From the NCBI GenBank assembly GCA_024654525.1, contig JANLHI010000002.1, positions 16,496 to 80,495 on the forward strand: a stretch of DNA of 64,000 bases. Direction: 5' to 3'. A program made the position numbers and the translations under genes. Positions 1,150 to 50,062 of the stretch are shown here, one piece after another; within the stretch, counting starts at the first letter, position 1; each line of letters begins with the position of its first letter. Below the pieces are notes generated by a model. The model worked only from the letters and a program-made list of their open reading frames with translations, ran no database searches and was not told the DNA's origin. Source of the stretch: Patescibacteria group bacterium (GTDB taxonomy: Bacteria; Patescibacteriota; Minisyncoccia; UBA6257; 2-01-FULL-56-20).

Positions 1150-1531
1150 GAGGGTATATTTTTCCTGTCATTATAATTGATTCTCTGGGGATTGACACTC
1201 TTTATTTTCTCTATATAATCAAGTCTTGCTATGGGTTCGGTCTGACAGCTCTCCATAGAGTAGTAATGCTATGGGGGGTGGTTCTTGAATCATGGCACAT
1301 GACTGATGCTTGAAAAATTCCTTGCTGGTTCGTGATCTGGAACATGCACGGCAATATAAGAATAAAAAAGAGTTTTTTAGTTGTTCCAATACGGTTTTGG
1401 TAGTTCCGTAAAAACTACATGTATTTCCGGTTTGGATTTTCACCTCGGTGGAATCCGAACTTTTTTTCGAGGATTTGATCCTGGTCCAGGATGAACGCTG
1501 GCGGCGTGGATAAGGCATGCAAGTCGAACGG

Positions 1532-1975
1532 TCAGATATCGGACCTCGGACGTCAGATTTCGGATGGTATACTGGAATAATGGATGTTACCGAATTGAGG
1601 ATATATGGAGATGCAATGAAGTTATTGCCGCAAGTATACACACTCGCAAAACAGCTTCCTAAAAGCGAGTTTGAACTCCGTTCTCAACTCTGTAATTCTG
1701 CAAAAGCTATTTCTGCTCAAATCGCAGAGGGATTCGCAAAAAAGGATTCGCAGGTTGAATTCAAGCGATTCTTGTTAATGGCACTCGGTTCTTCCGATGA
1801 GACAATCACGCATTTAAGACAAATTCAAATCTTAAAATTTGAAGGTGTTGATCTTAAATTGTGTGGGTCTTTAGTCGAAGAATATCAATCCGAGTCAAAA
1901 CAGATCAATTCATTAATTCAGAAGATAAAAAACAATTCGAAATCTGGTATCTGATGTCTGAAGTCCGATATCTGA
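1532..1975 (+). other. Intervening sequence (IVS) inserted in the 16S 5' domain, closed by a long inverted-repeat stem
   Basis: TCAGATATCGGAC at 1532 pairs with GTCCGATATCTGA at 1963. Canonical 16S sequence (GGCGAACGAGTTAGTAACAC) resumes immediately after. Confidence 0.75.
1580..1954 (+). CDS. rRNA intervening-sequence protein (four-helix-bundle family, TIGR02436 / S23-IVP-like)
   Basis: ELRSQLCNSAKAISAQIAEGFAKKD and FLLMALGSSDETITHL match the IVS-protein consensus (SQLrRAaxSIxaNIAEG ... FLxIAxGSxxE). The ORF lies entirely inside the IVS. The track ORF starts at 1517, but the internal ATG at 1580 is more likely. Confidence 0.65.
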   Translation: MDVTELRIYGDAMKLLPQVYTLAKQLPKSEFELRSQLCNSAKAISAQIAEGFAKKDSQVEFKRFLLMALGSSDETITHLRQIQILKFEGVDLKLCGSLVEEYQSESKQINSLIQKIKNNSKSGI

Positions 1976-2815
1976 CAGTGGCGAACGAGTTAGTAACACC
2001 CTAGTACGTACCCCGAAGTCGGACATAGCTCATCGAAAGGTGAGGTAATTTCCGATAGTCCCAGCTTTCGCTTTTCGTTTCACGAAAAGCTATAGCGGGC
2101 AAGTCGCAAAACTTGCCTGTCCGTAGCTCACGTGGAACGCAGAGCGAAGGCTGGGTAAAGTCGCAAGACGCTTTGGGATCGGCTTAGGTCCGATCAGCTA
2201 GTTGGTGGGGTAATGGCCTACCAAGGCGATGACCGGTAGGGGAGGTGAGAGCCTGGCCCCCAACGACGGAACTGAGACACGGTCCGTACTCCTACGGGAG
2301 GCAGCAGTCGAGAATATTCGACAATGGGCGAAAGCCTGATCGAGCGACGCCGCGTGCAGGATGAAGGGCTTCGGTCTGTAAACTGCGGTAGTATGGCAAC
2401 AACGCAAGTGAGTGCCATATGGAAAGAGGTGGGTAACTACGTGCCAGCACCAGCGGTAATACGTAGACCTCAAGCGTTATCCGGATTTATTGGGCGTAAA
2501 GAGCATGTAGGAGGCGCGGTGCGTCTTTGGTTAAATCCCACTGCCTAACGGTGGAAATGCCAGAGATACGGCCGTGCTAGAGGAGGTTAGAGGTGCATGG
2601 AACTCACGGTGTAGGGGTGAAATCCGTTGATATCGTGGGGAACACCAAAGGCGAAGGCAGTGCACTGGGACCTTCCTGACTCTGAGATGCGAAAGCGTGG
2701 GGAGCAAAAAGGATTAGATACCCTTGTAGTCCACGCCCTAAACGATGCCTGCTTGCTGTTTCGAGTATCGACCCTCGGAGTGGCGTAGCTAACGCGTTAA
2801 GCAGGCCGCCTGGGA

Positions 2816-2847
<32 letters not shown>

Positions 2848-2975
2848 AGACGGGGACTCGCACAAGCGGTGGAACATGAGGTTTAATTCGACGATAAGCG
2901 AGAAACCTTACCAGGGCTTGAAATGTTTGTTGAAAGTCTGTGGAAACACGGACCCTCCCTTAAAAAGACAGCAAG

Positions 2976-3007
<32 letters not shown>

Positions 3008-3090
3008 CTTTGAAGTGTTCCCTTAAGTGGGGTAACGAGCGCAACCCCTATCGTGTGTTATATGTGTCACACGAAACTGCCCCCGCTAAA

Positions 3091-3165
3091 GTTCAGATGT
3101 TGGAAATCAGATATCAGATGTCGGATGAAATTCCGAAATCTGATATCCGAAATCTGATATCCGAT
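3091..3165 (+). other. Roughly 75-nt expansion hairpin inserted in the loop of 16S helix 40
   Basis: CCCCGCTAAA and TTTAGCGGGG flank the insert. The insert is built of ATCAGATATCAGAT and CCGAAATCTGATATC repeats. Confidence 0.6.
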
Positions 3166-3687
3166 TTTTAGCGGGGGAGGAAGGAGGGGACGACGTCAAA
3201 TCCGCATGGCCCTCTGATGCCCTGGGCCACACTCGTGTTACAATGAAGCCGACAATGCGTTGCGAACCCGTAAGGGGGAGCTAATCGTATCAAACGGTTT
3301 CTCAGTTCGGATTGAGGGCTGCAACTCGCCCTCATGAAGCTGGAATCGCTAGTAATCGCGGATCAGAACGCCGCGGTGAATACGTTCTCGAGTCCTGTAC
3401 TCACCGCCCGTCACGCCAAGGGAGCCGGGAATGGGTAAAGCCTCGCAAGGGGTTAACTCAAATTCGGTGACATGGGCGAAGTCGTAACAAGGCACGCGTA
3501 GCGGAAGCTGTGCGTGGAACAATTAAACTATACGTCGTAATTTTTAGATTTTAGGTGATAGGTGTTGGATGAAATATTCTAAAACCTAAAACCTTCAACC
3601 TAAAACTTATTTGATTGGAACAACTAAAAAGCTTTTATACTCCAGTGTCCGATATCAAATGTCGGGAAATGTGGTATACTTTTTTAC

Positions 3688-4080
3688 ATGGCTGATTTGC
3701 AAAACACTATTATGGTCATCGAGGATGACCCGTTTCTTTCCTCTATATTAAAGGCTCGATTTGAAAAAGATGGGTTTCAAGTGATTCAAGCATTTAATGG
3801 AGAGGAGGCGCTTGCAAAGCTTCGTGAGTCGACGCCTGGAATTGTTATTTTGGATCTCATTATGCCGAAGATGTCGGGATTTGAGGTGCTTCAAGCAATT
3901 TCCCTTGACCCTCAGTTGAATAAGATTCCTGTGGTAGTGGTTTCAAACCTCGGACAACCGGGCGATATGGAAAAAGCAAAAGGGTTTGGTGCGATAGATT
4001 ATTTTGTTAAAATGAGGATGTCGATTGATGAATTGATTGTAAAAATTCGAGATATTGTGACAAAAAACGGGATGAAGTAG
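3688..4080 (+). CDS. Stand-alone response-regulator receiver (CheY-like) protein
   Basis: IMVIEDD is followed by ILDLIMPKMSGFEV and a conserved Lys region. There is no output domain. Confidence 0.8.
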   Translation: MADLQNTIMVIEDDPFLSSILKARFEKDGFQVIQAFNGEEALAKLRESTPGIVILDLIMPKMSGFEVLQAISLDPQLNKIPVVVVSNLGQPGDMEKAKGFGAIDYFVKMRMSIDELIVKIRDIVTKNGMK

Positions 4081-4460: not shown

Positions 4461-4540
4461 CAGAAAGGTTCAACCTTGCCATATGGCAAGGTTGAACCTT
4501 TCTGTTTCTGTGAGTAAGCCGCGAGAGCGGCTTTTTTTTG
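4461..4540 (+). terminator. Tandem hairpin rho-independent terminator after rplS
   Basis: A perfect palindrome CAGAAAGGTTCAACCTTGCC/GGCAAGGTTGAACCTTTCTG is followed by GCCGCGAGAGCGGC and a T8 run. Confidence 0.8.
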
Positions 4541-4607
4541 TTTGACATTTTTCACAAAAGTTTTATTATATTCCCCATTGACCTTTAATAACTTAAATTG
4601 TGAAGAT

Positions 4608-5354
4608 ATGAAAAAATTCCTCTTGGTTCAGCTTAACCCTAACGGGGTAGCTGGGCATTTCTGGATGGGAATTGTGGGTTTGGTAATTACTGTAGGGGAG
4701 TCATTCCCCGGGTTTTTTCCAGATCCCCAATCCTTGTTAGTTCTCGCGGGTGTCGTGATTTTCGCGACTCTCCTCATCCCGGCGGGCGGTACTGATCGGG
4801 AAACGGAAGCCGATGTCTTGATTATAATGACGTTCGGTACGAGTGGTGTGTTCGGCGCCACTATAGGCGCGATGCTCACGTCTCTCGAAGGAATTTCTCC
4901 AAAACTCCTCACACCATCCATGATATGGAGTATGACGCTGGTAATTCTGGTATGTAAATCGTACTGGAAATGTGGGTATCTTTCGCGGGAACTTCTCGCG
5001 AGGGTATTTTCGAGTGTCAGGGTGAATGATTCAGTCCTTCACCTTATTGCATTCCTCGAGCGTCATAAGTTTCATGTCCGTGTAAGGAACCTCCGGCGGG
5101 CTATCCTCGACTTTGACGCAGAAGCCGTAGCGAAAACTTTCGATGGGTGGGTCGAGGGTAAGGTAAGATTTGCTTCGCTTGAAGCAATTCTTCGGCAAGA
5201 GGAAGCTTGGACGGAAAACATCGAGAATCTTTTCGTTCGGGCACGTGAGGATATCCTAAAACATATCACCTCGGGTGGGGAGAGCGTATCTCTCTCATCG
5301 GACTCGAAACCCGTTTCACGAGGGCGGGTGAAAATTCACCCCGCCCAGCAGTAA
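4608..5354 (+). CDS. Hypothetical membrane protein
   Basis: Hydrophobic helices are followed by a charged C-terminal domain. The track ORF starts at 4542; the ATG at 4608 (MKKFLL) is more plausible. Confidence 0.4.
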   Translation: MKKFLLVQLNPNGVAGHFWMGIVGLVITVGESFPGFFPDPQSLLVLAGVVIFATLLIPAGGTDRETEADVLIIMTFGTSGVFGATIGAMLTSLEGISPKLLTPSMIWSMTLVILVCKSYWKCGYLSRELLARVFSSVRVNDSVLHLIAFLERHKFHVRVRNLRRAILDFDAEAVAKTFDGWVEGKVRFASLEAILRQEEAWTENIENLFVRAREDILKHITSGGESVSLSSDSKPVSRGRVKIHPAQQ

Positions 5355-11954: not shown

Positions 11955-13268
11955 TTGAACCAAAAAGGATTTGCAAACATAGTAATGCTTATTGTCGCAG
12001 CCCTCGCTATCGCCGGAGTAGGCGGTTATTTCGTTTTGAATCGGCAGGCGCCATTACCGGAACCTACGCCGACACCAACACCGAATCCAATTGAAAATCC
12101 TAGTCCGACCCCAACTCCTATTCAAATTCCCAAACAGCCTGCTCAATTCCAAAATCCTAAAAATATTCCGCAAGCTCATAATACTTTCGGATTTAATTCC
12201 ATCAAGATACTTGTCAAAGAAGAAGGAAATAAAAATGTTTTTATTTCGCCTTCCAGCATCGCTTTGGCGCTGTCTATGGTCTATAACGGCGCAAATGGAG
12301 AGACAAAAAATGCCATGCAGAAAACTTTACAATTTCAAAATTTGGACATCGCTACTGTCAATCAAGAAAGTTTAGGACTTATCAACAGCTTAAAAAATCC
12401 TGATCCGAAAGTAGAACTTTCGGTGGTAAATTCAGTATGGGCAAGAAATGGTGTAGATTTTAAGAAAGATTTTCTAAGTGCGGTTGGAAGTTATTTTAAC
12501 GCCGAGATTTCAACTCTTGATTTTTCCAACTCAAATGCGGCAAACACAATAAACGCTTGGGTTGATAAAAATACTAAAGGAAAAATACCCACCATAGTAA
12601 CTCCTCCTATTCCGTCAGATATGGTGATGTATCTTATCAACGCGGTTTATTTTAAGGGAAGCTGGACTACTGAATTTGATAAGAAATTAACAGAAGACAG
12701 AAATTTTACTACTGCTGATGGTGTTTCTAAAAAACATCCGCTTATGCGACAGTATGGTGATTTGCCATATCTTGAAATGGAGGATTTCCAAAGCGTGAAT
12801 CTTCCATATGGTACAAACAAGCGATTAAGTATGTATGTATTTTTGCCAAAAAATCTCAATAGTTTTGTTCAAACTTTGGATACGAATAAATGGAATGATT
12901 GGATGAAACAATATAAAGAAACAGAAGGCACTATATTGCTTCCGAGATTTAAAATGGAATACGAAAAGGGATTGATACCGATGCTGACACAGCTAGGTAT
13001 GGGAGTTGCATTTCAAGATAACGCTGACTTGACTGGCATTGGTGATAGTCTAAAAATCAGCGAGGTCAAACATAAAACCTATGTTGATGTAAATGAAGAA
13101 GGGACGGAAGCCGCCGCGGTAACAAATGTGGGTGTAGGCACTACATCAGTTATGCCGGCGCAAAAAACATTCTACATGGAAGTCAACCGTCCTTTCTTCT
13201 TTGTGATTAGAGACAATCAAACCCAAGAGGTATTGTTCATGGGAACAATACAAAATCCTTCTAAATAG
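11955..13268 (+). CDS. Serpin (serine protease inhibitor) with an N-terminal membrane anchor and a Pro/Thr-rich linker
   Basis: FISPSSIALALSMVYNGANGETK, NAVYFKGSWTTEFD, the hinge/reactive-centre loop EEGTEAAAVTNVGVGTTSVMP and the C-terminal FFFVIRDNQTQEVLFMGTIQNP are all serpin motifs. Confidence 0.85.
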   Translation: MNQKGFANIVMLIVAALAIAGVGGYFVLNRQAPLPEPTPTPTPNPIENPSPTPTPIQIPKQPAQFQNPKNIPQAHNTFGFNSIKILVKEEGNKNVFISPSSIALALSMVYNGANGETKNAMQKTLQFQNLDIATVNQESLGLINSLKNPDPKVELSVVNSVWARNGVDFKKDFLSAVGSYFNAEISTLDFSNSNAANTINAWVDKNTKGKIPTIVTPPIPSDMVMYLINAVYFKGSWTTEFDKKLTEDRNFTTADGVSKKHPLMRQYGDLPYLEMEDFQSVNLPYGTNKRLSMYVFLPKNLNSFVQTLDTNKWNDWMKQYKETEGTILLPRFKMEYEKGLIPMLTQLGMGVAFQDNADLTGIGDSLKISEVKHKTYVDVNEEGTEAAAVTNVGVGTTSVMPAQKTFYMEVNRPFFFVIRDNQTQEVLFMGTIQNPSK

Positions 13269-18974: not shown

Positions 18975-19076
18975 GAGTGACAAATTTTAAAAGGAGGTGG
19001 CTGGACATTCGCGTTCAACCACCTTTTCCTATTTTAAATCCTCTCCATTTTTCCTTAAAAGAATGGTGCTACATAT

Positions 19077-20081: not shown

Positions 20082-20567
20082 ATGGCTACTCGGCACCTTG
20101 TAAGAACAGTGATTCTCCAGTCCCTTTATGAATGGGATTTTTATCATAAAGAGAAGGATATTATTGCGATTCTTGAGAGAAATCTCCAAGAATTCGCGTC
20201 GGGCATAGACGAGCCCGATTTTGCGTGGAGAATTTTAAAAGGTCTCGTGGAGCATTTGCGCGAGATAGACGAAATAATTGTGCGTGTTGCGCCAGAATGG
20301 CCTCTTGATAAAGTTGCCATAATTGACAGGAATATTCTTCGAATAGGGCTTTACGAATTGATGTACGCGAATCCCGAAGAAGTACCTCCCAAAGTCGCTA
20401 TTAATGAAGCGATTGAAGTTGCAAAAAATTACGGCGGTCCAAGCTCTGCGCGATTTGTAAACGGCGTATTGGGTACGGTCTATCGCGAGGTGCAAGCGAA
20501 GCGCGGTGATGTGGTTTCCGAAGTACCTGTCGCGCCGAAACGTAAGAAACGGAAAGATGCAAAATAG
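20082..20567 (+). CDS. nusB: Transcription antitermination factor NusB
   Basis: [26 protein letters not shown] and [19 protein letters not shown] match NusB. Confidence 0.85.
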
Positions 20568-21252
20568 TCCCGATACACAAGCTCTCGAAACAGCAATTGG
20601 CGTTCCAATCGGGAACGTTGATTTATACTACGCGGCGCTCACGCATCGTTCCTATTTAAATGAAGAACCTCATTGGCCTCATGGGCATAACGAACGGCTG
20701 GAGTATCTTGGAGATGCGGTGTTGGAGCTTGTGGTGAGCGAGGATCTCTATTTAAAATTTCCCGATGATCCGGAAGGGAAACTTACACTTCTTCGCGCGG
20801 CGCTCGTAAACTACCAATTTCTTGCACGCGTGGCGGAAGATATCAATCTTAACAGCTTTCTCCTTATGTCGCGTGGTGAAAACAGAGATGTAGGAAAGGC
20901 GCGCGAAGTTATTTTGGCGAACGCGATGGAAGCGCTTATCGGCGCAATTTATCTTGACCAAGGGCTTGGTGAAGCAAAAAAATTCATTGATCGTTTCGTC
21001 ATGGTAAGTCTTGGTGAGATTGTGAGAAATGGAAGTTATAAAGATGCGAAAAGTGAGCTTCAAGAACTGATTCAAGAAAAGAAAAAAGTAACTCCTTCAT
21101 ATCGGGTACTTGATGAAAACGGCCCTGCGCATAAAAGAACATTCCGAATAGGAGTGTATTTTGGTGAAGATCTTATTGCCGAAGGAGAAGGACTGTCAAA
21201 GCAAGAGGGAGAGGTTGAAGCGGCGCGAAAAGCGTTAGAGAAGGTGAGATAG
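20557..21252 (+). CDS. rnc: Ribonuclease III
   Basis: [20 protein letters not shown] is the RNase III signature. A C-terminal dsRBD is present. The start was adjusted to the ATG that overlaps the nusB stop. Confidence 0.9.
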
Positions 21253-26260: not shown

Positions 26261-28216
26261 ATGAAAAATATCTTTGAACAATTAGTAGATTTATTAAAAA
26301 AAGATGAGCGCCTTGTTTCGCAAGACGGCGTGCTTTTGAAAAATCAAGTGCAGGAATTGGCTAGGAAAAATGATCCAGCTTTGATTAAGCTTTTACTTTC
26401 CGACAAGGCGATAAAACAGCACTTCTTTTTTGAAGTAGAAAAAACGCTGATTTTTGATAAAGAAAAGTTTATCCGCTTTGTTTCTAATAAACAATTTTTA
26501 CCGGATTCCTATACTGCGTTTAAAAATAAAATCGGCTTAACTGCTGGCGATGAATATGTGAGCGAAAACAAAGAAGTGGTTTTAACTTGGCCTTATAAGG
26601 ATTGTGTTTTGGAAGGCGGAATGACCAAAGAAGACCAAAAGAGGGATGAGATTTTTTATAATGAAACATTAGCGCCGGACGATATCAATCGCCTACTGGA
26701 CGCCAAAGTTTTTACCAATTTCAAACGGATAGACAAAAAAGGCGAACACAAACTGGACGGCTTCAAGCGCGATGAAAAAGGTACGATTAAAGACAATTTG
26801 ATTATTAAAGGCAACAACTTGCTCGCGCTTGCTTCACTTAAAAAAGAATTCGTCGGAAAAGTGAAGCTGATTTACATTGATCCGCCGTATAACACAGGTG
26901 ATGACGGATTTAATTATAACGATACATTCAACCATTCAACATGGATGACCTTCTTAAAAAATCGATTGGAAATAGCTAGAAAAATGCTGACCAAAGATGG
27001 ATCGATTTTTATCCAAATTAATGATATCGAAGAAGCATATCTAAAGGTGTTATGTGATGAGGTTTTTACTCGGGAAAACTTTCATACGAGCATATGCGTG
27101 CAAATGTCTCATTTGAGCGGAGTAAAAATGGCGCACAAAGATAAGAAATTACCTAAAATTAAAGAGTATGTCTTATTTTATACAAACTCACCAAAGATTA
27201 AATTAAACCCACAATATGTTCCAGCTAGTTGGGATGAAGCACTAGAGCGATATTCTTCATTCGTAGTTAAAGAAAATTATACTGATGATGAGTGTGAAAA
27301 ATGGAAGATTATTCCACTAAACAAAGCGATCAAAGATAGTGGCGTTGATATAAAAGACAAAAAGGCAGTAACTGATTTCAAATTAAAAAATGCAGACTTA
27401 ATATTTAGAACTGCAAGAAATAGAGGGGCAGATTATTCAGCATACAATCCTAATTGTTTTAATAAAGTCACCAACCCCGACGAATCATATTATTTTGTTT
27501 ATAAAGGAGAAGATATAAGTTTTGCAGCGGACAAGGTTATTTCTATAAACGGTAAATTGACTCCAGTTGTTGCTTTGGGGGATATTTGGACCGATATCGG
27601 AATAAATAATCTATCAAATGAAGGTGGTGTGGATTTAAGATTTGGAAAAAAACCTGAAAAGTTGATAGAACGAATAATTAAGCTAATATCTAATTCAGAC
27701 GATGATATTATCGTGGATTTTTTTAGTGGATCAGGAACTACCGGTGCTGTTGCTCATAAATTGAAAAAGCGATATATCCTCATTGAGCAATTAGCTGATC
27801 ATATTAATAAATCTATTGCAAGAATTAAGAATGTAATCAAAGGTGAACAAAGTGGGATAAGTAAAGATAATGATTGGAAAGGTGGCGGAGATTTTGTCTA
27901 TATGGAACTTGCTAAATGGAATGAGGAATGGATAGAAAAAATTGAAAAAGCCAAAACCGGCAAAGAACTCGCTAAACTTTGGGATGAGATGAAAGAAACC
28001 GTCTTTTTGAGCTACAAAGTCGATCCGACAAATGTTGATGCAAATGCCAAAGATTTTGCGGAATTATCTATTGCCGATCAAAAGAAATTTTTGATTGAGT
28101 GCTTGGATAAAAATCAGCTTTATGTAAATTTGAGCGAGATTGAGGATAGAGAGTATGGGGTGAGTAAAGAGGATATAAAGTTAAATAAAGAGTTTTATGA
28201 AAAAGATAGCTTTTAA
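26261..28216 (+). CDS. mod: Type III restriction-modification N6-adenine DNA methyltransferase (Mod)
   Basis: Motif IV (IYIDPPYNTG) precedes motif I (VDFFSGSGTTGAVA), which is beta-class order. The 651-aa length is typical for Mod. Confidence 0.85.
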   Translation: MKNIFEQLVDLLKKDERLVSQDGVLLKNQVQELARKNDPALIKLLLSDKAIKQHFFFEVEKTLIFDKEKFIRFVSNKQFLPDSYTAFKNKIGLTAGDEYVSENKEVVLTWPYKDCVLEGGMTKEDQKRDEIFYNETLAPDDINRLLDAKVFTNFKRIDKKGEHKLDGFKRDEKGTIKDNLIIKGNNLLALASLKKEFVGKVKLIYIDPPYNTGDDGFNYNDTFNHSTWMTFLKNRLEIARKMLTKDGSIFIQINDIEEAYLKVLCDEVFTRENFHTSICVQMSHLSGVKMAHKDKKLPKIKEYVLFYTNSPKIKLNPQYVPASWDEALERYSSFVVKENYTDDECEKWKIIPLNKAIKDSGVDIKDKKAVTDFKLKNADLIFRTARNRGADYSAYNPNCFNKVTNPDESYYFVYKGEDISFAADKVISINGKLTPVVALGDIWTDIGINNLSNEGGVDLRFGKKPEKLIERIIKLISNSDDDIIVDFFSGSGTTGAVAHKLKKRYILIEQLADHINKSIARIKNVIKGEQSGISKDNDWKGGGDFVYMELAKWNEEWIEKIEKAKTGKELAKLWDEMKETVFLSYKVDPTNVDANAKDFAELSIADQKKFLIECLDKNQLYVNLSEIEDREYGVSKEDIKLNKEFYEKDSF

Positions 28217-28826
28217 AACTTACGAACAAATAAAAAATCTACTCCGGATAACAGGGTACTTATTCTGGTGGATCATACCCTTTGCTTTATTTATACTGGC
28301 CACATATTTACCGAAATTTATTTGGAATATTAGTTTTAATGACTATTTAAATTTTATAAAGATTCTAGTCTGGCCCATATCAGCCTTGATTATTTTATTT
28401 TTCTTTAAAAAGGTGATAACTTACCTTTTCTTTTCCATTGATGGCTTTAATTTTTTTGGCGCCAAAGGAGAAATAAAAAATGTATATGACCTAATAACGG
28501 AAAAAGTCAACGAAAGATTTGAAAATGAAAAAAGAGAGGCCGCAAGAGAAACCGAGGTAAATAGACTACAAAGAGAAATTGAAACAAATTCAGGAAGGGC
28601 GGATGAAAATTTAAAGACTGCAAAGGAGATTTTAGCAGAATGGAAAAAATCTAACACGGATAATAAGAGACTTTTGGAGGAAAATAAGCAACTAAGGGAC
28701 GCAATTGAGAGAAAAAATCAATACTCTGGCAATTTTCCGCCTGTTTCTGGAGAGTCAGAACTTGGTACTGGTAATAAGGTTGATAATAGTCAACCCGTGG
28801 CTCCTTCCAATGAAGAAAAAATATGA
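28197..28826 (+). CDS. Hypothetical membrane protein with a C-terminal coiled coil, embedded between mod and res
   Basis: Two or three N-terminal TM helices are followed by a K/E/R-rich coiled coil. The start overlaps the mod 3' end by 20 nt. Confidence 0.5.
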   Translation: MKKIAFKTYEQIKNLLRITGYLFWWIIPFALFILATYLPKFIWNISFNDYLNFIKILVWPISALIILFFFKKVITYLFFSIDGFNFFGAKGEIKNVYDLITEKVNERFENEKREAARETEVNRLQREIETNSGRADENLKTAKEILAEWKKSNTDNKRLLEENKQLRDAIERKNQYSGNFPPVSGESELGTGNKVDNSQPVAPSNEEKI

Positions 28827-29089
28827 ATAAATATTTAATAACTTACGATTTGAAAAATAAGTCCATAAGGGATTACCAATCACTTTTTATTGCCATAAAA
28901 AGTCTTGGCCCATGGTGGCATTATTTAGAGTCAACATGGATTGTTAAAACTAATTTAAATTCCCAACAAATATGGAATACTTTAGGCCAACACTTACTCA
29001 CAAATGACCATATTTTAGTTGTAAAAATTGATAATAGTGATAAGTGGGGATGGTTACCACAAGATGCATGGAATTGGCTAAACACATAA
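28823..29089 (+). CDS. Small Trp-rich hypothetical protein (88 aa), embedded between mod and res
   Basis: ATGA start/stop overlap with the upstream ORF. The stop lies 7 nt before res. The pattern YLITYDL...DHILVVKI suggests an alpha/beta fold. No recognisable family. Confidence 0.45.
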   Translation: MNKYLITYDLKNKSIRDYQSLFIAIKSLGPWWHYLESTWIVKTNLNSQQIWNTLGQHLLTNDHILVVKIDNSDKWGWLPQDAWNWLNT

Positions 29090-29095
29090 TAAATT

Positions 29096-31780
29096 ATGCT
29101 TTACGACGAATTTAACTCATATAAAAACTTTGCCGGCGCTGATGTTTTCAAAAACAAAGCGACAGAAAAATCAGATGTTTTGAAAAATCTCAATCCGGCT
29201 TTTCCGGCGCGCGAATATCAGAAGGAAGCACTGGGGCGGTTTTATTATTATTGTGAGGAATATCACCAAAAACAAAAGCCAATTCATTTGATGTTCAATA
29301 TGGCGACTGGTTCGGGGAAAACGCTCATAATGGCGGCGAATATTTTGTATTTATACCAAAAGGGCTACCGTAATTTTATTTTTTTTACTCGTTTGGGTAA
29401 CATTATTCAAAAAACCAAAGCAAATTTTCTTGATCTAAGTTCTAAAAAATATTTGTTTGCCGACAAAATCACTCTTGGCGGACAGGAAATAAAAATCAAA
29501 GAAGTTGATAATTTTGAAGGTGTAAATGATGATGATATCAATATTATTTTCTCTACCACCGCGCTTTTACACTCTCGTTTCAATTTTGCTCGCGAAAATG
29601 TTTTAACTTACGAAGATTTTGCGGAAAAGAAAATTGTTTTGATTGCTGATGAAGCGCACAACCTATCTGTGGAAACAAATAGCAAGATAAGCAAAACCGA
29701 AGAAGAAGACCGCCGAAACTGGGAAAATACAGTAATGCGGATTTTGAACGCCAACAGCCAAAAGGATAATGTGCTTTTGGAGTTTACGGCAACGGCTCGA
29801 TTAGAACAGGAATATCCTGAGATTTTGGAAAAATACAAAGACAAAGCGATTTATCGTTATGATCTGAAAGAATATCGCTTGGACGGGTTTTCAAAAGATG
29901 TGCGAACTTTGCAGATAAACGCGCCGATTATGGAACGAGCTCTTTCGGCGGTGATTATTTCGCAATATCGCCGTAAGGTGGCAGAAAAGTATAAAATCGC
30001 ACTAAAGCCAGTGGTTATGTTTAAGGCCAACAGAGTAAGTATTCCCAAAGAAGGAATATCCAAGGAACATAATCCGCAAATTGTCGTTTCAAACATTTTC
30101 AAAGACTCTTTTCATAAACTTATTTCTGAACTAGACGAAAAACACCTAAAACAGCAAACAGCAATAAAAAACGCAACATTGCAAAAAGCATTTCAATTTT
30201 TCAATGAGCAAAAAATTACTCTTGTGGATTTAGCGGCAGAAATGAAAAGCGATTTTGCACCGGAAAAATGCTTGACGGTTGATGAAGATAAAGATTTAGA
30301 GCAAAAACAAATTTTACTTAATTCACTAGAAGATCAAAACAATGAAATCCGCGCTATTTTTGCGACAGAAAAATTGAATGAAGGTTGGGATGTTTTGAAT
30401 CTTTTTGATATTGTCCGGATTTACAACAGTCGTGACGAAAAAGGCAATAAACCGGGAAAAACAACTGTGCAAGAGGCGCAACTTATCGGGCGAGGCGCAA
30501 GGTATTATCCTTTTACTCTTGGTGAATTTACTGACCCATATAGAAGAAAATTCGATACTGATATACAAAATGAATTACGGATATTGGAACAACTTTATTA
30601 TCATAGCGTAACGAATTCTAAGTACATTTCTTTACTAGAAGGAGTTTTGGTTCGTGAAGGTATTATGCCATCACGCACAGTGCAAAAAGAGATTAAAATT
30701 AGAAGCGATTTTAAAAACAGCGATTTTTGGAAGAAAGGCTATATTTTCTTAAATTCTCGCAAGGAAAATTTAGGAAAAGATGTTTTTACTCTCTCGGACG
30801 CCAAAGCAGAATTCGACCATAACGCTGAAATAAACATCTTTCAACTACCAACGCGAGAAGCGATAGAAAAAGATTTGTTTGTTGCTGGTGCTGGCGCCGG
30901 AGTAAAGGCAAAAATTAAAATCCGAGATTTTAGAATTGCTGATTTCGGAACACATATTGTCCGCATCGCTTTGGCAAAAATATCATGCGGACAGTTTTGT
31001 GAACTTAAAAAGATTTTCGGTAACATAGAATCCGCAAAAGATTTTATTTCAAATGAAAAATATCTTGGAGGCATAAAAATTAAGGTGAAAGGTACAAACG
31101 AGCAAGTAGAAAATCTTTTGCAGATTGAAAAGTTGAATATTACCGGATTTGTGATTGATAAAGTATTGGAAGTCGCCGGCAAAGAGAAAAAGGAATACTA
31201 CGGAACAAAGGAGTTTAAAGCTCACCTGATCCAAAAAATATTTGAAAATGACAAGGTGTTGCAATTAGATAGCGAAAGTCCGCGAGCGCAAAATATGCGA
31301 GATTTTGATTTTTCTTCTCGGGATTGGTTTGCTCAAAACGAAATCTGGGGAACGAGCGAGGAGGAATCATTTTTGCGTTTTATTGATGAGGCAATAACAA
31401 AGCTAAAAAAGAAATATCAAGATGTTGCACTATTTCGTAATGAGCAGTTTTTCAGAATCTACGGCTTTGAAAACGGTGAGCCGTTTTATCCCGATTTCGT
31501 TTTGTTTTTGACGGAAAAGAAAACAAAGCAAGAAGTTATGTATCAGATTTTTGTTGAGCCAAAGGGCAATCAATTTTTGGATGCACAAAATACTTTTGAG
31601 CATTCAAAAGAGGGTTGGAAGCAAAAACTATTGGTTGAGATAGAAAAAAGTCATATTGTTGAGTTGAGGATAGAAAGTAAGGATTTTCGTTTGGTTGGTT
31701 TGCCTTTCTTTAACGAGGGACAGGTGAATAGTGCCTTGCGTGAAAAGTTTGAAGAGGTGTTTGAAAAAAAATTATTATAA
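29096..31780 (+). CDS. res: Type III restriction endonuclease (Res) subunit
   Basis: A REYQ motif, Walker A MATGSGKT and DEAH box IADEAHN are present. The C-terminal nuclease-like segment reads PDFVLFL...IFVEPKG (PD-(D/E)xK). Confidence 0.85.
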   Translation: MLYDEFNSYKNFAGADVFKNKATEKSDVLKNLNPAFPAREYQKEALGRFYYYCEEYHQKQKPIHLMFNMATGSGKTLIMAANILYLYQKGYRNFIFFTRLGNIIQKTKANFLDLSSKKYLFADKITLGGQEIKIKEVDNFEGVNDDDINIIFSTTALLHSRFNFARENVLTYEDFAEKKIVLIADEAHNLSVETNSKISKTEEEDRRNWENTVMRILNANSQKDNVLLEFTATARLEQEYPEILEKYKDKAIYRYDLKEYRLDGFSKDVRTLQINAPIMERALSAVIISQYRRKVAEKYKIALKPVVMFKANRVSIPKEGISKEHNPQIVVSNIFKDSFHKLISELDEKHLKQQTAIKNATLQKAFQFFNEQKITLVDLAAEMKSDFAPEKCLTVDEDKDLEQKQILLNSLEDQNNEIRAIFATEKLNEGWDVLNLFDIVRIYNSRDEKGNKPGKTTVQEAQLIGRGARYYPFTLGEFTDPYRRKFDTDIQNELRILEQLYYHSVTNSKYISLLEGVLVREGIMPSRTVQKEIKIRSDFKNSDFWKKGYIFLNSRKENLGKDVFTLSDAKAEFDHNAEINIFQLPTREAIEKDLFVAGAGAGVKAKIKIRDFRIADFGTHIVRIALAKISCGQFCELKKIFGNIESAKDFISNEKYLGGIKIKVKGTNEQVENLLQIEKLNITGFVIDKVLEVAGKEKKEYYGTKEFKAHLIQKIFENDKVLQLDSESPRAQNMRDFDFSSRDWFAQNEIWGTSEEESFLRFIDEAITKLKKKYQDVALFRNEQFFRIYGFENGEPFYPDFVLFLTEKKTKQEVMYQIFVEPKGNQFLDAQNTFEHSKEGWKQKLLVEIEKSHIVELRIESKDFRLVGLPFFNEGQVNSALREKFEEVFEKKLL

Positions 31781-31784
31781 ACTT

Positions 31785-32306
31785 ATGAAAATCAACACTT
31801 TGACTGGTTCAACAGGCTCACCGCAAGCAAGCTCAGTGCGAGGCAACACATTCAAACTCATCATCTCGCTTATTATTCCACAATTGGCAGGAGGTCTGGG
31901 GAGCTTCTTTACCATCAGTTCGGTGAAAGATTGGTATCCGATGCTGGAGAAGCCCTTGCTCAATCCGCCAGCATGGATATTTGGTCCGGTCTGGACGACG
32001 TTGTTTCTTTTGATGGGCTACGCGCTGTATCTTGTCTGGAAGGACGAGAGCGGAAAAAGCAAACGCCTGGCCTACTTCGCTTTTGGGATTCAAATGGTTT
32101 TAAATATGCTATGGTCAATTATCTTTTTCGGTCTGCACAGTCCGGGCGGTGCGCTTATTGAGATCGTATTCCTTTGGCTCGCCATTCTTGCCACGTTTGT
32201 TGCTTTTGCGAAAATATCAAAACCGGCGGCGTGGCTCTTGTTGCCCTATATCCTCTGGGTCAGCTTTGCTATGTATTTAAACTATTCAATCTGGATGCTT
32301 AATTAG
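31785..32306 (+). CDS. tspO: TspO/MBR-family (tryptophan-rich sensory) membrane protein
   Basis: WYPMLEKPLLNPPAWIFGPVWTTLFLLMGYALYLVW and LWSIIFFGL are hallmarks of the TspO family. The start ATG follows 2 nt after the res stop. Confidence 0.8.
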   Translation: MKINTLTGSTGSPQASSVRGNTFKLIISLIIPQLAGGLGSFFTISSVKDWYPMLEKPLLNPPAWIFGPVWTTLFLLMGYALYLVWKDESGKSKRLAYFAFGIQMVLNMLWSIIFFGLHSPGGALIEIVFLWLAILATFVAFAKISKPAAWLLLPYILWVSFAMYLNYSIWMLN

Positions 32307-35231: not shown

Positions 35232-35513
35232 ATGAAAAATAAGGGCAAAAAAGCAATATATATATCTGTAGCTGAGCTGGCAAAAATTCTTGGCATTAGT
35301 CGTATTGCTGTATTTAATAAAATAAAGAAAGGACAAATTCAAGCTGAAAAAATTGGACGTTCTTATGCTATTTCGATGGAACATGTTAATGAAATAATTT
35401 CTGGTTCTAGCTCTGGGGTATTAACAGAAGAGAAAAAGGAAGACATAAAAAAAGCTGTAGAAAAAGTTGTAAAAGAATATGGAGAAACTTTAAAACTTCT
35501 CGGTAGAGAATAA
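35232..35513 (+). CDS. Excisionase-family HTH DNA-binding protein (putative antitoxin)
   Basis: ISVAELAKILGISRIAVFNKIKKGQIQAEKIGRSYAI is an excisionase/MerR-like HTH. It lies 3 nt upstream of the Doc gene. Confidence 0.6.
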   Translation: MKNKGKKAIYISVAELAKILGISRIAVFNKIKKGQIQAEKIGRSYAISMEHVNEIISGSSSGVLTEEKKEDIKKAVEKVVKEYGETLKLLGRE

Positions 35514-35515
35514 TT

Positions 35516-35941
35516 ATGAAATTGAAGCAACTTACAATTGTAGATATAGAGTATGCAGCACATCGCTTAGCAAAAGAAACAATGAGTTGGAATAAACCGA
35601 TTCCTGATTTTAGTACTCGATATACTAATACTCTTGAAAGATGTGTTGAGGCACCGTTTCAATCATTCGGAGGAAGACAGCTATACCCCGGACTAATAAA
35701 AAAAGGTGCCATACTTTTTTATTTTATGATTAAAAATCATCCATTTCAAAATGGAAACAAAAGATTGGCTATGACGACATTATTCATATTTCTTTTTCAA
35801 AATAAAAAATGGCTTAAGGTTGATAATCAGGAATTATATAATTTTGCTCGTTGGGTTGCAGAAAGCAACGCAAAATTAAAAGAAGACACTGTTCGCGCTG
35901 TCGAAACATTCCTAATTAATTATATAACTGATATTCATTAA
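35516..35941 (+). CDS. doc: Doc-family toxin (Fic/Doc fold)
   Basis: Doc motif HPFQNGNKRLA. 141 aa. Confidence 0.8.
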   Translation: MKLKQLTIVDIEYAAHRLAKETMSWNKPIPDFSTRYTNTLERCVEAPFQSFGGRQLYPGLIKKGAILFYFMIKNHPFQNGNKRLAMTTLFIFLFQNKKWLKVDNQELYNFARWVAESNAKLKEDTVRAVETFLINYITDIH

Positions 35942-36007
35942 TTTTATGAACGAATCAGAAACGCGAGCCAAATATTTTTGCCCCTTGAAAAACTTTTGAA
36001 ATAATTT

Positions 36008-36379
36008 ATGAAAAAATCATATATATCATCAGAAACAACAGGAGCACCACTATCAGGAGCATACGAGGCAAATAATTTTATATTTGTCTCTGGTCAAATT
36101 CATATGAATTTCTCTCAACAGTTAGAGGGGATCACCATTGAAGAAAAGTTTGATATTGTTATTTCTAATGTAAAGAAAATTTTAGGTGAAGCTGGACTTT
36201 CGCTAAGCGATATTATAAGAGTTCACCTATATCTCACTGATCTAAAAGAATTACCTGCTCTCAATAAGGTCTATCTAAACTATTTTCAACATCCACTTCC
36301 TGCGCGTACCGCAGTAGGTGTTGTTGCGTTACCACTTGGTGCAAGTTTAGAAATGGATGTAATAGCGGTACGAAAATAA
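36008..36379 (+). CDS. ridA: RidA/YjgF-family protein
   Basis: The protein is 123 aa. The C-terminal PARTAVGVVALPLGASLEMDVIA matches the RidA consensus. Confidence 0.85.
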   Translation: MKKSYISSETTGAPLSGAYEANNFIFVSGQIHMNFSQQLEGITIEEKFDIVISNVKKILGEAGLSLSDIIRVHLYLTDLKELPALNKVYLNYFQHPLPARTAVGVVALPLGASLEMDVIAVRK

Positions 36380-36380
36380 T

Positions 36381-36908
36381 ATGAAACTATACCGTTTCAG
36401 CCCAATAAAAAATGAAAAGGAACTGATTGAAGCAATAAAACATACACACTTCGCTTGTTTTGAATTATGCAACAAGGCTTTTGGAAAATATCTTCCCGTT
36501 GCAGGAAATATGGGAATATTTTGCCACTATGATGATGAATATAAATTCCTTACAAAATTACGCCAAGAATTAACAGAGCAATCTGATAACTTTAATCAAA
36601 AATATTTTCGGCTTCATAATCCCATAATTATTTCCGCTCACGAAGATGTGTCGGAAACCACATATACCTATCTTTACATTCGCAGACCAGACCAATACAG
36701 AGCACAGGTTGGAGATGTCGATTTTATTATTGATGATGAAAAATATACTGAACTTAAAAAATCCCTACAGAGTGGCTCACAAATCAACGGAGCAAAAATT
36801 TTTGATCGTCCTGATTTAGACATGGTTGAGTTATCTGACCCGGATACTGATGCCCTTGCCTACATAAGTACGAGGGCAATGACAAAAAAAGTGAGAGTTA
36901 AACAGTAA
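36381..36908 (+). CDS. Hypothetical protein
   Basis: 175-aa ORF directly after ridA. No recognisable motifs. Confidence 0.35.
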   Translation: MKLYRFSPIKNEKELIEAIKHTHFACFELCNKAFGKYLPVAGNMGIFCHYDDEYKFLTKLRQELTEQSDNFNQKYFRLHNPIIISAHEDVSETTYTYLYIRRPDQYRAQVGDVDFIIDDEKYTELKKSLQSGSQINGAKIFDRPDLDMVELSDPDTDALAYISTRAMTKKVRVKQ

Positions 36909-38783: not shown

Positions 38784-39044
38784 ATGGGCATGTTATACGA
38801 ATCGTTGTTGCAGTCTCAAATTTTCTTTTTCATTTCCTCGGTGGGGTTCATTATTCTAGGACTTTTGGCGGTGGTGCTTTTGCTTTATTTTATCCGCGCG
38901 ATGAGCACCTTCAATAGAATTATGGATAATATGGAAAAAAACATAGATAAAATAGGCGACACGACCAAAGAAATGTTCGGTGAGATGAAAGACAGTTTTA
39001 TTTTCAATTTTCTCTTCAAAAAGAAAAAGCGTCGCAAAGATTAA
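38784..39044 (+). CDS. Small hypothetical membrane protein
   Basis: A single TM helix and a KKKKRRKD tail. Confidence 0.3.
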   Translation: MGMLYESLLQSQIFFFISSVGFIILGLLAVVLLLYFIRAMSTFNRIMDNMEKNIDKIGDTTKEMFGEMKDSFIFNFLFKKKKRRKD

Positions 39045-40251: not shown

Positions 40252-40491
40252 TTGATTATGGAGGATAATTACGGTATGGATATGCTTGCATTGTTATGCG
40301 GTGTTGTGGGGCTTCTTGTTATCTCCCGCGCGGTGTGGTTGCGGAATGAGCGTGCGCAGGATGAATGGTTTATTGTCGGGGGCATACTACTTTTGGTGTA
40401 CAGCGTAAGCATCGGGAGCGCAATATTCACCATTCTTCAGTTGGTATTTATTCTTTCGGCGTTTTGGGAACTGAAAAAGCTACGGAAATGA
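40252..40491 (+). CDS. Small hypothetical membrane protein
   Basis: Two TM helices. It overlaps the tspO2 start by ATGA. Confidence 0.3.
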   Translation: MIMEDNYGMDMLALLCGVVGLLVISRAVWLRNERAQDEWFIVGGILLLVYSVSIGSAIFTILQLVFILSAFWELKKLRK

Positions 40492-40982
40492 GTGCGTTTT
40501 TCAAACTTGTTTTTACGATAGGAATATCCGAACTTGCGGGAGTTTCCGGTTCTATTTTTACCGTGCCGGCGATTTCTTCCGGGTGGTACGCGACGTTGGA
40601 GAAACCCGCACTCACACCGCCTTCGTGGGTGTTTGCTCCCGTGTGGACGATACTTTTTGCGCTCATGGGAATATCACTTTTCCTTGTGTGGCGTGCACAT
40701 TCCAATATTTTGCAAAATATTGGAATGTTGCCGATGTGGCATTTGGCATTCTTTGTATTTGCGTTCCAGCTTTCGCTTAATGTGTTATGGTCAATGATGT
40801 TTTTTGGATTACAGAGCACTGCGGGAGCGTTGGTGATAATTATTTCTCTTTGGTGCGCTATTCTTGCGACTATTTTGGTATTTGGAAAAATTTCCCGTGT
40901 GGCGGCATGGCTTTTAGTGCCGTATATCGTATGGGTGAGCTTTGCGGCATATCTTAATTATTCAATCTGGATTCTTTCTTGA
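40488..40982 (+). CDS. tspO: TspO/MBR-family membrane protein (second paralog)
   Basis: GWYATLEKPALTPPSWVFAPVWTILFALMGISLFLVW. The start was adjusted to the MSAFFKL ATG. Confidence 0.8.
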   Translation: MSAFFKLVFTIGISELAGVSGSIFTVPAISSGWYATLEKPALTPPSWVFAPVWTILFALMGISLFLVWRAHSNILQNIGMLPMWHLAFFVFAFQLSLNVLWSMMFFGLQSTAGALVIIISLWCAILATILVFGKISRVAAWLLVPYIVWVSFAAYLNYSIWILS

Positions 40983-48664: not shown

Positions 48665-48751
48665 AGCGTGATTAGGGAAATCGGGACATTTTTATTTTTT
48701 TGAAAACATTCTGCAGAACGCGAGAAGGTTATCGCAGTGCGATTACATAGC

Positions 48752-50062
48752 ATGAAGCAAGGAACGGCAGTTAAGAAAAAAAGTGTATTCGTAGCAATGT
48801 CCCGCCGTCGCCAACCTGCGCTTCGCGTGCCGCCAGGATATCCTTTGGCGACGCACGGCTGGAGGTTTCGGCAAGGCGAGGGCTATGGCGGGCAAGCCGG
48901 AGGAGCTAAAGATTCAAAATCGAAGCGTGTATTTGTTGCAATGTCTGGTGGTGTTGATTCGAGTGTCGCGGCGTTGCTTCTTAAGCGGCAGGGGTATGAC
49001 GTGACCGGCGTATTTATGCGTTGTTACAACCTCGATGGATGTGCCGTACGTGATGCGGAAGACGCACGGCGTGTGGCAGGGCGTTTGCATATTCCTTTTT
49101 ATGTGTGGGATTTTGAAAAGGAATACAAAAAGCATGTAATGCATTACATGATAGACGGTTACCGTCGCGGTATTACTCCGAATCCGGATGTAATGTGCAA
49201 TAAAGAGATTAAATTCGGGTTATTTTTCGAAAGAGCTATGGCGTTGGGTGCGGATTATGTCGCAACAGGACATTACGTGAAAATTCGGAAATCAAAAATA
49301 AAAGATAAGAATGTGTATAAGCTTTACCGTGCGAAAGATAACCGCAAAGACCAATCGTATTTTCTTTGGACGCTGACTCAGAGACAGCTTGCACATTGCC
49401 TTTTCCCCATAGGGGAGTATCTCAAATCCGAAGTCAGAACGGTTGCGCGTCGTGCGGGGCTTGCAACTGCCACAAAAAAAGATTCACAGGGGATTTGTTT
49501 TCTTGGAAAATTTTCACTGAAGGATTTTCTCAAAAAACACATTCGCGCACGACGAGGGAAAATCGTGAATATATCGGGCGTAGAGATGGGAATACACGAT
49601 GGAGCGGTTTTTTATACGATAGGACAACGACACGGATTTAATCTCAATAACGTAAATCGTGAACTGGGAATTGCGAATCAAGGCGAAACAAAACCCTATT
49701 ATGTTGCGGGAAAAGATATAAAGAATAATCTGATTATTTTGGCGGAAGGGGGGAACAATCAGTCGCTTTATAAAAAAGAAGTGTCGCTTGCCGAAGTTAA
49801 TTATATTCATCCAATTTCTGATTCTCGATTTCCCATTTCCGTACGCGCGCGAGTTCGGTATCGTCAGCCACTTGCAGAAGCGCGGATTATACGCGGTAAA
49901 ACAAAAAATAAACAAAAGGGCGAGAAAATACCTTTGCCCCCCCATTTTTCTTTGCGCTTCACTCAACCTCAAAAGTGTATTGCGGAGGGACAGTCGGCAG
50001 TATGGTATTCGCCACGAGGAGAAATGCTAGGAGGTGGGATAATCGTTTCAGCAGGGAAGTAG
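48752..50062 (+). CDS. mnmA: tRNA-specific 2-thiouridylase MnmA, with a roughly 45-aa in-frame GC-rich insertion at the N-terminus
   Basis: PP-loop VFVAMSGGVDSSVAA. The insert separates a duplicated KxVFVAMS segment from the true PP-loop. Confidence 0.85.
   Translation: MKQGTAVKKKSVFVAMSRRRQPALRVPPGYPLATHGWRFRQGEGYGGQAGGAKDSKSKRVFVAMSGGVDSSVAALLLKRQGYDVTGVFMRCYNLDGCAVRDAEDARRVAGRLHIPFYVWDFEKEYKKHVMHYMIDGYRRGITPNPDVMCNKEIKFGLFFERAMALGADYVATGHYVKIRKSKIKDKNVYKLYRAKDNRKDQSYFLWTLTQRQLAHCLFPIGEYLKSEVRTVARRAGLATATKKDSQGICFLGKFSLKDFLKKHIRARRGKIVNISGVEMGIHDGAVFYTIGQRHGFNLNNVNRELGIANQGETKPYYVAGKDIKNNLIILAEGGNNQSLYKKEVSLAEVNYIHPISDSRFPISVRARVRYRQPLAEARIIRGKTKNKQKGEKIPLPPHFSLRFTQPQKCIAEGQSAVWYSPRGEMLGGGIIVSAGK

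Follow-up and report, generated by a model that had tools for sequence, protein, structure and literature searches.

A 16S rRNA gene tail without the anti-Shine-Dalgarno sequence in a member of the Paceibacteria, and how start codons may be found in its clade

Base pairing of an mRNA's Shine-Dalgarno (SD) element with its 16S rRNA partner, the anti-SD, is the textbook route of bacterial translation initiation. The subject of this study is the 3′ tail of the 16S rRNA gene in a stretch of 64,000 nucleotides (nt) from a Patescibacteria group bacterium (contig JANLHI010000002.1; the whole stretch is called the window below), a tail in which the anti-SD core CCUCC is missing. The initial annotation of the window regarded the anti-SD as almost universally conserved in bacterial 16S rRNA; this is true as a general statement, but an exception within this very clade is already in print (PMC9297842), where Tsurumaki et al. 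(2022, RNA 28:1041) found the anti-SD motif (CCTCCT) in no more than 48% of Parcubacteria. As described there, the Parcubacteria without an anti-SD overlap the group that lacks uL1 (PMC9297842), and the uL1-lacking group is the class Paceibacteria (PMC12641178). According to the latter study, from 2025, Paceibacteria are without rplA and der and mostly without era, and ABY1 differs in this respect. Era, which recognises GAUCACCUCC, has been lost from most members of the candidate phyla radiation (CPR) (PMC10582724). Where the anti-SD is missing, SD sites are generally missing too, and there is no matching variant motif (PMC6107228). Because loss of the anti-SD in a subgroup of Parcubacteria has been published, at least in the form of the motif counts of that report (PMC9297842), the trait is already known, and the window adds an instance of it rather than a discovery.

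The tail of the 16S rRNA gene in the window is without an anti-SD. The features on which this statement depends are as follows.

~1461–3530 (approximate ends), + strand: 16S rRNA gene, matched by the bacterial small-subunit (SSU) rRNA model RF00177 at 1229.9 bits; 5′ end read from the sequence, 3′ end taken from the alignment
~1531–1977, ~2063–2147 and ~3083–3172, + strand: intervening sequences (IVSs) in the 16S rRNA gene, located by direct reading and RF00177
3491–3517, + strand: helix 45, GGCACGCGTAGCGGAAGCUGUGCGUGG (also GGCACGCGTAGCGGAAGCTGTGCGTGG), with the usual GGAA loop; model positions 1496–1520, all pairs kept
3518–3530, + strand: 3′ tail, AACAAUUAAACUA in place of AUCACCUCCUUUC, with no CCUCC; gap-free against model positions 1521–1533
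1374–1390, + strand: leader strand of the pre-16S processing stem, a 17-bp perfect complement to 3614–3630
3614–3630, + strand: trailer strand of the processing stem, marking the end of the pre-16S; the trailer is 3531–3613
3542–3606, + strand: long imperfect hairpin in the trailer, from co-folding; no CCUCC; a spacer structure, not an intron

After helix 45, the sequence from 3518 reads AACAATTAAACTATACG. In a focused Infernal/Rfam search of 3180–3700, the 3′ domain of the gene scored 293.8 bits against RF00177. The model, which reaches the very end of the gene, places its 'GAUcACCUCCUUu' without gaps on 'GAACAAUUAAACU' at window positions 3517–3529, and its final 16 positions, 'cugGAUcACCUCCUUu', align with 'GUGGAACAAUUAAACU' (3514–3529), again without gaps and with the posterior probability given as '*'. 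The gap-free alignment shows that the tail is still there and in register; the replacement is limited to the CCUCC core and the positions next to it. The initial annotation had read the 16S 3′ end as lacking CCUCC and had proposed an SSU covariance-model alignment as the check, which agrees with that reading. It had also reported no CCTCC in the roughly 170 nt up to the next coding sequence (CDS), and this too holds: none is found between helix 45 and the next CDS, nor anywhere in 3500–3700, where the sole CTCC lies at 3640, beyond the processing stem. The window contains a single perfect CACCTCCTT, at 18991–18999 on the minus strand, and 15 near-matches to it, which is at chance level (10.6 ± 3.1).

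There are two circumstances that could suggest that a true CCUCC tail has been displaced by a further IVS or intron after helix 45, to be joined during processing, or is encoded elsewhere: no fewer than three insertions interrupt the 16S rRNA gene of the window, one of which codes for a 23S_rRNA_IVP protein, and a relative, L213, has a group I intron near its 16S 3′ end. The structure of the precursor argues otherwise. The 17-bp leader/trailer stem lengthens to ~23 bp in the co-fold and is likely to be an RNase III substrate of the usual pre-16S type; an RNase III gene (20506–21252) is present in the window, NusB is also encoded there, and the CAACTAAAAAGCT motif of the stem's 3′ strand is found downstream of the 16S rRNA gene in L213 as well. 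The enclosed trailer (3531–3613) is 83 nt long, forms one long hairpin, contains no CCUCC, and gave no significant Rfam match and no intron match, the only hit, to a microRNA hairpin model, being below threshold and due to chance. Since the stem closes the pre-16S, no displaced tail is hidden inside it. The group I intron of L213 (RF00028, 59.3 bits; positions 4497–5294 of that locus, with an internal open reading frame (ORF)) follows GAAGUCGUA and so lies a short way upstream of helix 45; the exon past it consists of helix 45 and an anti-SD-less tail, AUCAAUUAAACUA; the 16S rRNA gene of the window has no intron at this site. Given in addition the gap-free fit of the tail to the model, the lack of CCTCC from helix 45 to the processing stem and to the next CDS, and 116 independent contigs with the same architecture (see below), we reject a displaced or further processed tail, the second of two alternatives put forward in the initial annotation, and consider it exceedingly improbable.

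The trait is not confined to the window. In a species survey, one genome per species was scanned with GTCGTAACAAGGNNNNNGTAGCGGAAGCTG and 120 loci were fetched. The helix-45 signature GGCACG.GUAGCGGAAGCUG..CGUG is found in 28 of the 120, and all 28 are without CCUCC; the CACG/CGUG stem is a signature of the anti-SD-less clade. The 28 loci are labelled Taylor-, Nomura-, Jorgensen- or Ryanbacteria, Paceibacteria/Paceibacterota, Minisyncoccia or 'Parcubacteria group'. Loci with other helix-45 stems, which include Magasanik-, Uhr-, Falkow- and Moranbacteria, have either AUCACCUCCUUU or a sequence that differs from it by one base. Metagenomes were also scanned, without bias, for the helix 45 of this clade; this yielded 119 usable tails, 116 of them without CCUCC. 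Two of the three exceptions (L148 and L215) could be compared, and their 16S segments are closest to anti-SD-bearing ABY1-type sequences; tail type therefore follows phylogeny. The 16S rRNA nearest to that of the window is from L019 (86.8% identity, tail AUCAAUUAAACUA), a closed 829-kb chromosome, and that of L106, labelled Minisyncoccia, is 82% identical. Based on these nearest sequences, the shared helix-45 signature and the source record ('Patescibacteria group bacterium'), the organism is a member of the class Paceibacteria (Parcubacteria, Patescibacteria/CPR). The genes rplA, der and era were not among the window ORFs scanned with Pfam, 64 kb being uninformative on genome content.

Because the window comes from a metagenome-assembled genome and rRNA regions are prone to mis-assembly, an error of assembly or sequencing also has to be weighed, as does the idea that this is a non-functional 16S copy beside a canonical one. 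However, the same tail type is present in many independent assemblies of different projects, including the closed chromosome of L019; the gene scores 1230 bits with its helices intact; tail type tracks 16S phylogeny; and the SD deficit of the genes, described below, agrees with loss of the anti-SD. An assembly error, named in the initial annotation as an outcome that would undo its reading, is therefore rejected, since tails of this kind recur in genomes and metagenome contigs that were obtained independently, and we assign a negligible probability to this whole class of explanation. The anti-SD-less trait is real and common to the whole clade.

Some further properties of the 16S rRNA gene were observed. 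The Rfam content of the window consists of one bacterial SSU rRNA (RF00177) and three tRNAs, and no large-subunit rRNA was found anywhere in the 64 kb. The 16S start reported by Rfam (1836) is an artefact of the 447-nt insertion (~1531–1977) near the 5′ end of the gene; that end was placed by reading GAGGATTTGATCCTGGTCCAG at 1469–1489. The insertion has an ORF (1517–1954, + strand) for a 23S_rRNA_IVP-family protein (PF05635, E=1.2e-18) and is bounded by the inverted repeats gtcagatatcggac ... gtccgatatctgac. A motif like CAGATATCGGA / TCCGATATCTGA is present at 1533–1575, 1950–1975, 3090–3170 and 3647–3666; two 16S insertions have it at their ends, and it is seen once more a short way past the processing stem. 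Its repetition suggests that these insertion elements are related members of one family, which may be mobile. The next gene after the 16S (window positions 3531–4080) is a response regulator and not a 23S rRNA gene. In the available DNA of four sub-clade relatives (L019, L142, L155 and L158), 23S was likewise not seen after 16S; unlinked rRNA genes thus appear to be a feature of the sub-clade.

The mRNA half of the pairing is also missing. For this analysis 59 long ORFs were called in the window, each start being taken crudely as the first start codon of the longest ORF, and a site was counted as SD-like if its duplex energy with CACCUCCUUU was ≤ −4.5 kcal/mol, the test region being −20 to −4 and the control region −60 to −44. 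No SD enrichment was found among the window ORFs, with 22% of genes having a site in the test region and 22% in the control; the motif GGAGG occurs at −20 to −4 of none of the 59 ORFs, GGAG of 1, GAGG of 4 and AGGA of 5. An enrichment count of this kind had been suggested in the initial annotation, together with the observation that a set of housekeeping genes have no GGAGG-like element within 15 nt of their starts, and reading the upstream regions of Pfam-confirmed genes bears the observation out. No SD was seen within 15 nt of the start of rplS (4154), rpsP (47032), efp (48095), rpsB, tsf, a class II aminoacyl-tRNA synthetase gene (glyQS-like, 57361), murA (58798), mreB (60178) or frr (62100), all of which are confirmed by Pfam, as are mnmA, holB and rseP; rpsB has a GGAGG 16 nt upstream of its likely ATG at 50141. 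With the same pipeline, Saccharibacteria loci gave 62% SD-like sites against 25% in the control (n=8), which indicates that the method is able to detect SD sites. Mixed non-CPR loci were unusable as a positive control, because they are mostly GC-rich rRNA operons with spurious ORFs.

The anti-SD-bearing relatives have no excess of SD sites either. Loci of Magasanik-, Uhr-, Falkow- and Moranbacteria that retain the anti-SD have SD-like sites in 10% of cases against 17% in the control, which is no enrichment. At the ABY1-type anti-SD-bearing loci (L001, L013, L027, L031, L039, L053, L074, L096, L101, L105 and L118), the upstream regions are A/T-rich, being rich in A and poor in G, with no purine-rich box and with T at −1 in 69%. 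This state, a canonical anti-SD with no SD enrichment, resembles that of Bacteroidia and appears not to have been described for these organisms before. Because the ABY1-type relatives keep CCUCC yet have no SD sites, SD-independent initiation is more widespread than absence of the anti-SD and probably arose before the anti-SD was lost.

It could be asked whether the conserved new tail (CAAUUAAACU) is itself a new anti-SD, with mRNAs carrying the matching AGUUUAAUUG, or part of it, upstream of their starts. Initiation would then rely on an upstream element that pairs with AAUUAAAC. Conservation of the tail within the sub-clade is strong, whereas the sequence downstream of it is unrelated; GTTTAA- or AGTTAA-like strings can be seen by eye at −12 to −20 of several window genes; and AGTTA and TTAAA are over-represented relative to the composition of the whole window. 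However, a composition-matched control, in which the tail was complemented but not reversed, gave equal or higher values at every position. K-mers reverse-complementary to each locus's own tail had no positional peak and did not exceed the matched control (187 ORFs), and tail-complementary k-mers were neither enriched nor concentrated at any position in the set of 23 loci with a tail of the window's type (178 ORFs in 194 kb). Upstream of starts, the mean duplex energy with the window's own tail (−1.16) was no different from that in the control region (−1.12) or that obtained with the tail reversed (−1.35), and the commonest string, AGTTAA, matches the tail in parallel and not antiparallel orientation. 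Amin et al. (PMC6107228), moreover, found no pair of variant SD and variant anti-SD in 128 taxa. Having failed the composition-matched, positional and energy controls, an alternative SD that matches the new tail is rejected at this resolution, and we regard it as highly unlikely. The other alternative of the initial annotation, SD-independent initiation with a degenerated anti-SD, is the one supported, since there is no CCUCC, the trait is clade-wide, and neither an SD motif nor a tail-matching motif is enriched.

The sequence that replaces the anti-SD has a pattern of its own. Across 139 distinct anti-SD-less tails it is A-W-Y-A-W-U-U-M-A-A, with no G at tail positions 5–10. A1 is present in 100% of the tails, A4 in 89%, U6 in 85% and U7 in 95%; position 8 is C or A, positions 9–10 are mostly A, and the tail is variable past ~position 11. 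In the window's sub-clade, A[A/U]CAAUUAAA, in which the stretch CAAUUAAA is invariant, is found in 23 loci, 22 of them other than the window, followed by unrelated sequence.

One possible reason for this conservation is that the tail has been re-purposed, not for mRNA binding but for ribosome biogenesis, with a trailer hairpin guiding 3′ maturation, or as a protein platform. Where relatives have a canonical tail, its CCUCC forms pairs with GGGAG further downstream (−5 to −6 kcal/mol), and most anti-SD-less subtypes have a weak hairpin at the same place. A hairpin of at least 4 bp starting at tail positions 4–10 is found in 83% of anti-SD-less tails against 56 ± 4% of shuffles, and the arm at tail positions 6–9 has a downstream complement in 48% of own against 23% of other sequences, although the sequences are phylogenetically related and the counts overstate their independence. 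Matched pairs of tail and trailer arms include UUCA/UGAA, UCCA/UGGA, GUCA/UGAC and CUCA/UGAG. The conserved A1 and A4 are the counterparts of the two adenines of GAUCA. On the other hand, the A/U hairpins are marginal (~0 to −2.5 kcal/mol), and the window's own UUAA subtype is without the hairpin (6/29 against 38% in others). Re-purposing is therefore put forward tentatively, as an idea that is compatible with SD-independent initiation and does not exclude it. With similar reserve, the replacement tail might be regarded as a new selected element rather than decayed junk, with a hairpin in most subtypes and arms that change together, although we think this doubtful. If true, the 16S 3′ tail would have a conserved role independent of SD pairing, for which 3′ maturation and the docking of a protein on the 30S platform are candidates, and that role would show most clearly once it is no longer hidden by SD pairing.

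As a universal feature, a tail/trailer mini-hairpin was considered and rejected; it holds for the UUCA, UCCA and CUCC subtypes and fails for the UUAA subtype of the window. Intermediate-looking tails were observed in L047, L150, L186, L132 and L164 (AUUUUCUCCUAGUAAGGA, AUUCAUCCUAGUAAGGA, AAUAAUUUCUAGGAAA). They keep part of CUCCU together with a matching downstream AGGA, which suggests a stepwise, compensated drift of the anti-SD hairpin.

We consider it very probable that the window comes from a clade without an anti-SD in which SD use was lost first and in which starts are found without rRNA–mRNA pairing. Ribosomes of this clade would no longer use SD pairing. The 13-nt single-stranded tail after helix 45 would still be made, with CCUCC changed to an A/U-rich sequence (here AACAAUUAAACUA). 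Start codons would most likely be found by three routes: (i) for some of the genes that come first in an operon, transcripts that are leaderless or nearly so; (ii) termination-reinitiation at tight stop/start junctions inside operons; and (iii) for the remaining genes, A/U-rich, weakly structured upstream regions, as in Bacteroidia. As for the order of events, SD use was probably lost first, and the anti-SD may then have drifted once its remaining constraints were gone. Era is mostly absent from the CPR (PMC10582724), and bS21 is often absent from Parcubacteria according to the survey of Tsurumaki et al. (PMC9297842).

The first two routes are suggested by the sequences around the starts. At related loci, −10-like hexamers 6–11 nt before the ATG number 20 matches in 75 ORFs, against 2–3 per 3-nt bin elsewhere. 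The window starts listed below are among those with a −10-like box 5–9 nt ahead of the ATG, an arrangement that ~7–10 window genes fit.

3672–3690, + strand: extended −10-like box TGgTATACT (3672–3680), gap of 7 nt, ATG at 3688; response-regulator gene (Pfam Response_reg), a candidate leaderless start without an SD
ATG at 13431: −10-like box TATAAT, gap of 6 nt
ATG at 26261: −10-like box TATAAT, gap of 5 nt
ATG at 33948: −10-like box TATAGT, gap of 8 nt
ATG at 38784: −10-like box TAGAAT, gap of 6 nt
ATG at 55454: −10-like box TATAAT, gap of 9 nt

Within operons of the window, the distance from stop to start is −4 to +6 nt at 12 junctions. Together, the −10-like boxes 5–11 nt ahead of some ATGs and the stop/start junctions spaced by 1–6 nt hint at leaderless and coupled translation. 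The 'AATAAT' that is frequent directly before an ATG was rejected as a −10 box; in most cases it represents the TAA with which the preceding gene ends at a tight junction, which fits termination-reinitiation.

Several points weigh against SD-independent initiation as set out here. The start calls are crude and some of the ORFs lie inside rRNA, so that a weak or oddly spaced motif could be missed; the positive control for SD sites in Saccharibacteria consists of only 8–10 genes; and the mature 16S 3′ end is predicted here from alignment of the gene sequence. The proposed leaderless starts are suggested by promoter-like hexamers with a roughly three-fold enrichment. Finally, the tail is conserved, which pure relaxed drift does not predict, and it therefore probably retains some function.

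Other parts of the window were also considered. The initial annotation had described pyrF and pyrE as compositionally foreign genes that possess SD sequences. The SD-like strings and the higher GC content are indeed there: GGAAGGA and AGAGGA lie upstream of pyrF (44155) and the gene next to it (45191), whose GC content is 0.52–0.53 against 0.43. A foreign origin is not shown, however, because the homologues of pyrF (MCR4327957.1) that come with a source name are all from Patescibacteria or Paceibacterota, and working SD sites are not supported, because two SD-like matches among 59 genes are within the 22% background. The idea of foreign genes with relic SD sites was rejected on these two grounds. 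A better candidate for foreign DNA is a type III restriction-modification module at 26261–31780 (methylase, 26261–28216; Res helicase, 29096–31780), with a GC content of 0.31–0.36 against 0.43. There is a second low-GC block at 35232–36908 (GC at third codon positions, 0.16–0.29), which encodes a helix-turn-helix protein and a Fic/DOC protein. A full-length serpin gene (11955–13268, + strand; PF00079, E=7e-112) adjoins two sodium:solute symporters, and two genes of the TspO/MBR family (31731–32306 and 40365–40982, + strand) are present in this one 64-kb window of a reduced genome. The mnmA ORF (48737–50062, + strand) has an N-terminal extension that repeats 'K(K/S)xVFVAMS' at residues ~13–22 and 62–71; because the place where the start is expected, immediately ahead of the conserved VAMSGGVDSS, has no ATG, GTG or TTG, the start position of mnmA is ambiguous.

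A whole, globally abundant class without the rRNA half of SD pairing is a natural experiment on how start codons are found. There is also a practical side, in that 16S 3′ ends are often unannotated in these genomes (PMC12641178), and gene finders that score ribosome-binding sites will misplace starts in them. Two aspects are worth following up, namely the conserved replacement tail and the probable loss of SD sites before the anti-SD.

Mitochondrial mRNAs are leaderless or nearly so. Mammalian mitochondrial 12S rRNA is like the 16S rRNA described here in that it has no anti-SD and keeps helix 45 (PMC10582724), but it works in an organelle, with dedicated protein factors and just a few mRNAs, whereas here there is a free genome with hundreds of genes. 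The Actinomycetota and Deinococcota, which are rich in leaderless genes (Zheng et al. 2011, PMC3160421; GeneMarkS-2 group C, PMC6028130), likewise have −10-like boxes a few nt upstream of the ATG in a fraction of their genes; they differ in keeping the anti-SD and using SD sites for leadered genes, and the evidence for leaderless starts here is one of motif spacing. The 'SD-blind' ribosomes of Bacteroidia (Jha et al. 2021, PMC7797042; PMC13000453) offer a parallel in genome-wide SD-independent initiation and A-rich upstream regions. In that group, however, the anti-SD is kept, sequestered by bS21, bS18 and bS6, and used in rpsU autoregulation, whereas a retained but sequestered anti-SD of this type was not found in the window, from which the anti-SD is gone. 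It is the anti-SD-bearing Parcubacteria relatives of the ABY1 type that resemble the SD-blind state and may fit it.

Closer to the window are the anti-SD-less lineages among some Flavobacteriia (Chryseobacterium, Elizabethkingia and Blattabacterium, for example), some Mycoplasma, and Carsonella (Lim et al. 2012, PMC3457768; Amin et al. 2018, PMC6107228), in which a missing anti-SD is accompanied by a lack of SD sites, no compensating motif, and phylogenetic clustering. The window presents the same combination: a helix 45 followed by a tail without CCUCC, no enriched SD or tail-complementary motif as judged from crude gene calls, and a trait common to its phylogenetic neighbours. The difference is that those lineages are scattered genera or tiny endosymbiont genomes, whereas here a whole, very diverse class is involved and the replacement sequence is conserved. 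The closest counterpart is the Parcubacteria subgroup of Tsurumaki et al. (PMC9297842), which from the description of the motif in that report is the same clade with the same trait, and the window shares its helix-45 signature and tail type. The motif survey of that report deals with presence or absence; the conserved replacement tail, the lack of SD sites in ABY1-type relatives and the leader/trailer context of the 16S rRNA gene are described here in addition to that presence or absence.

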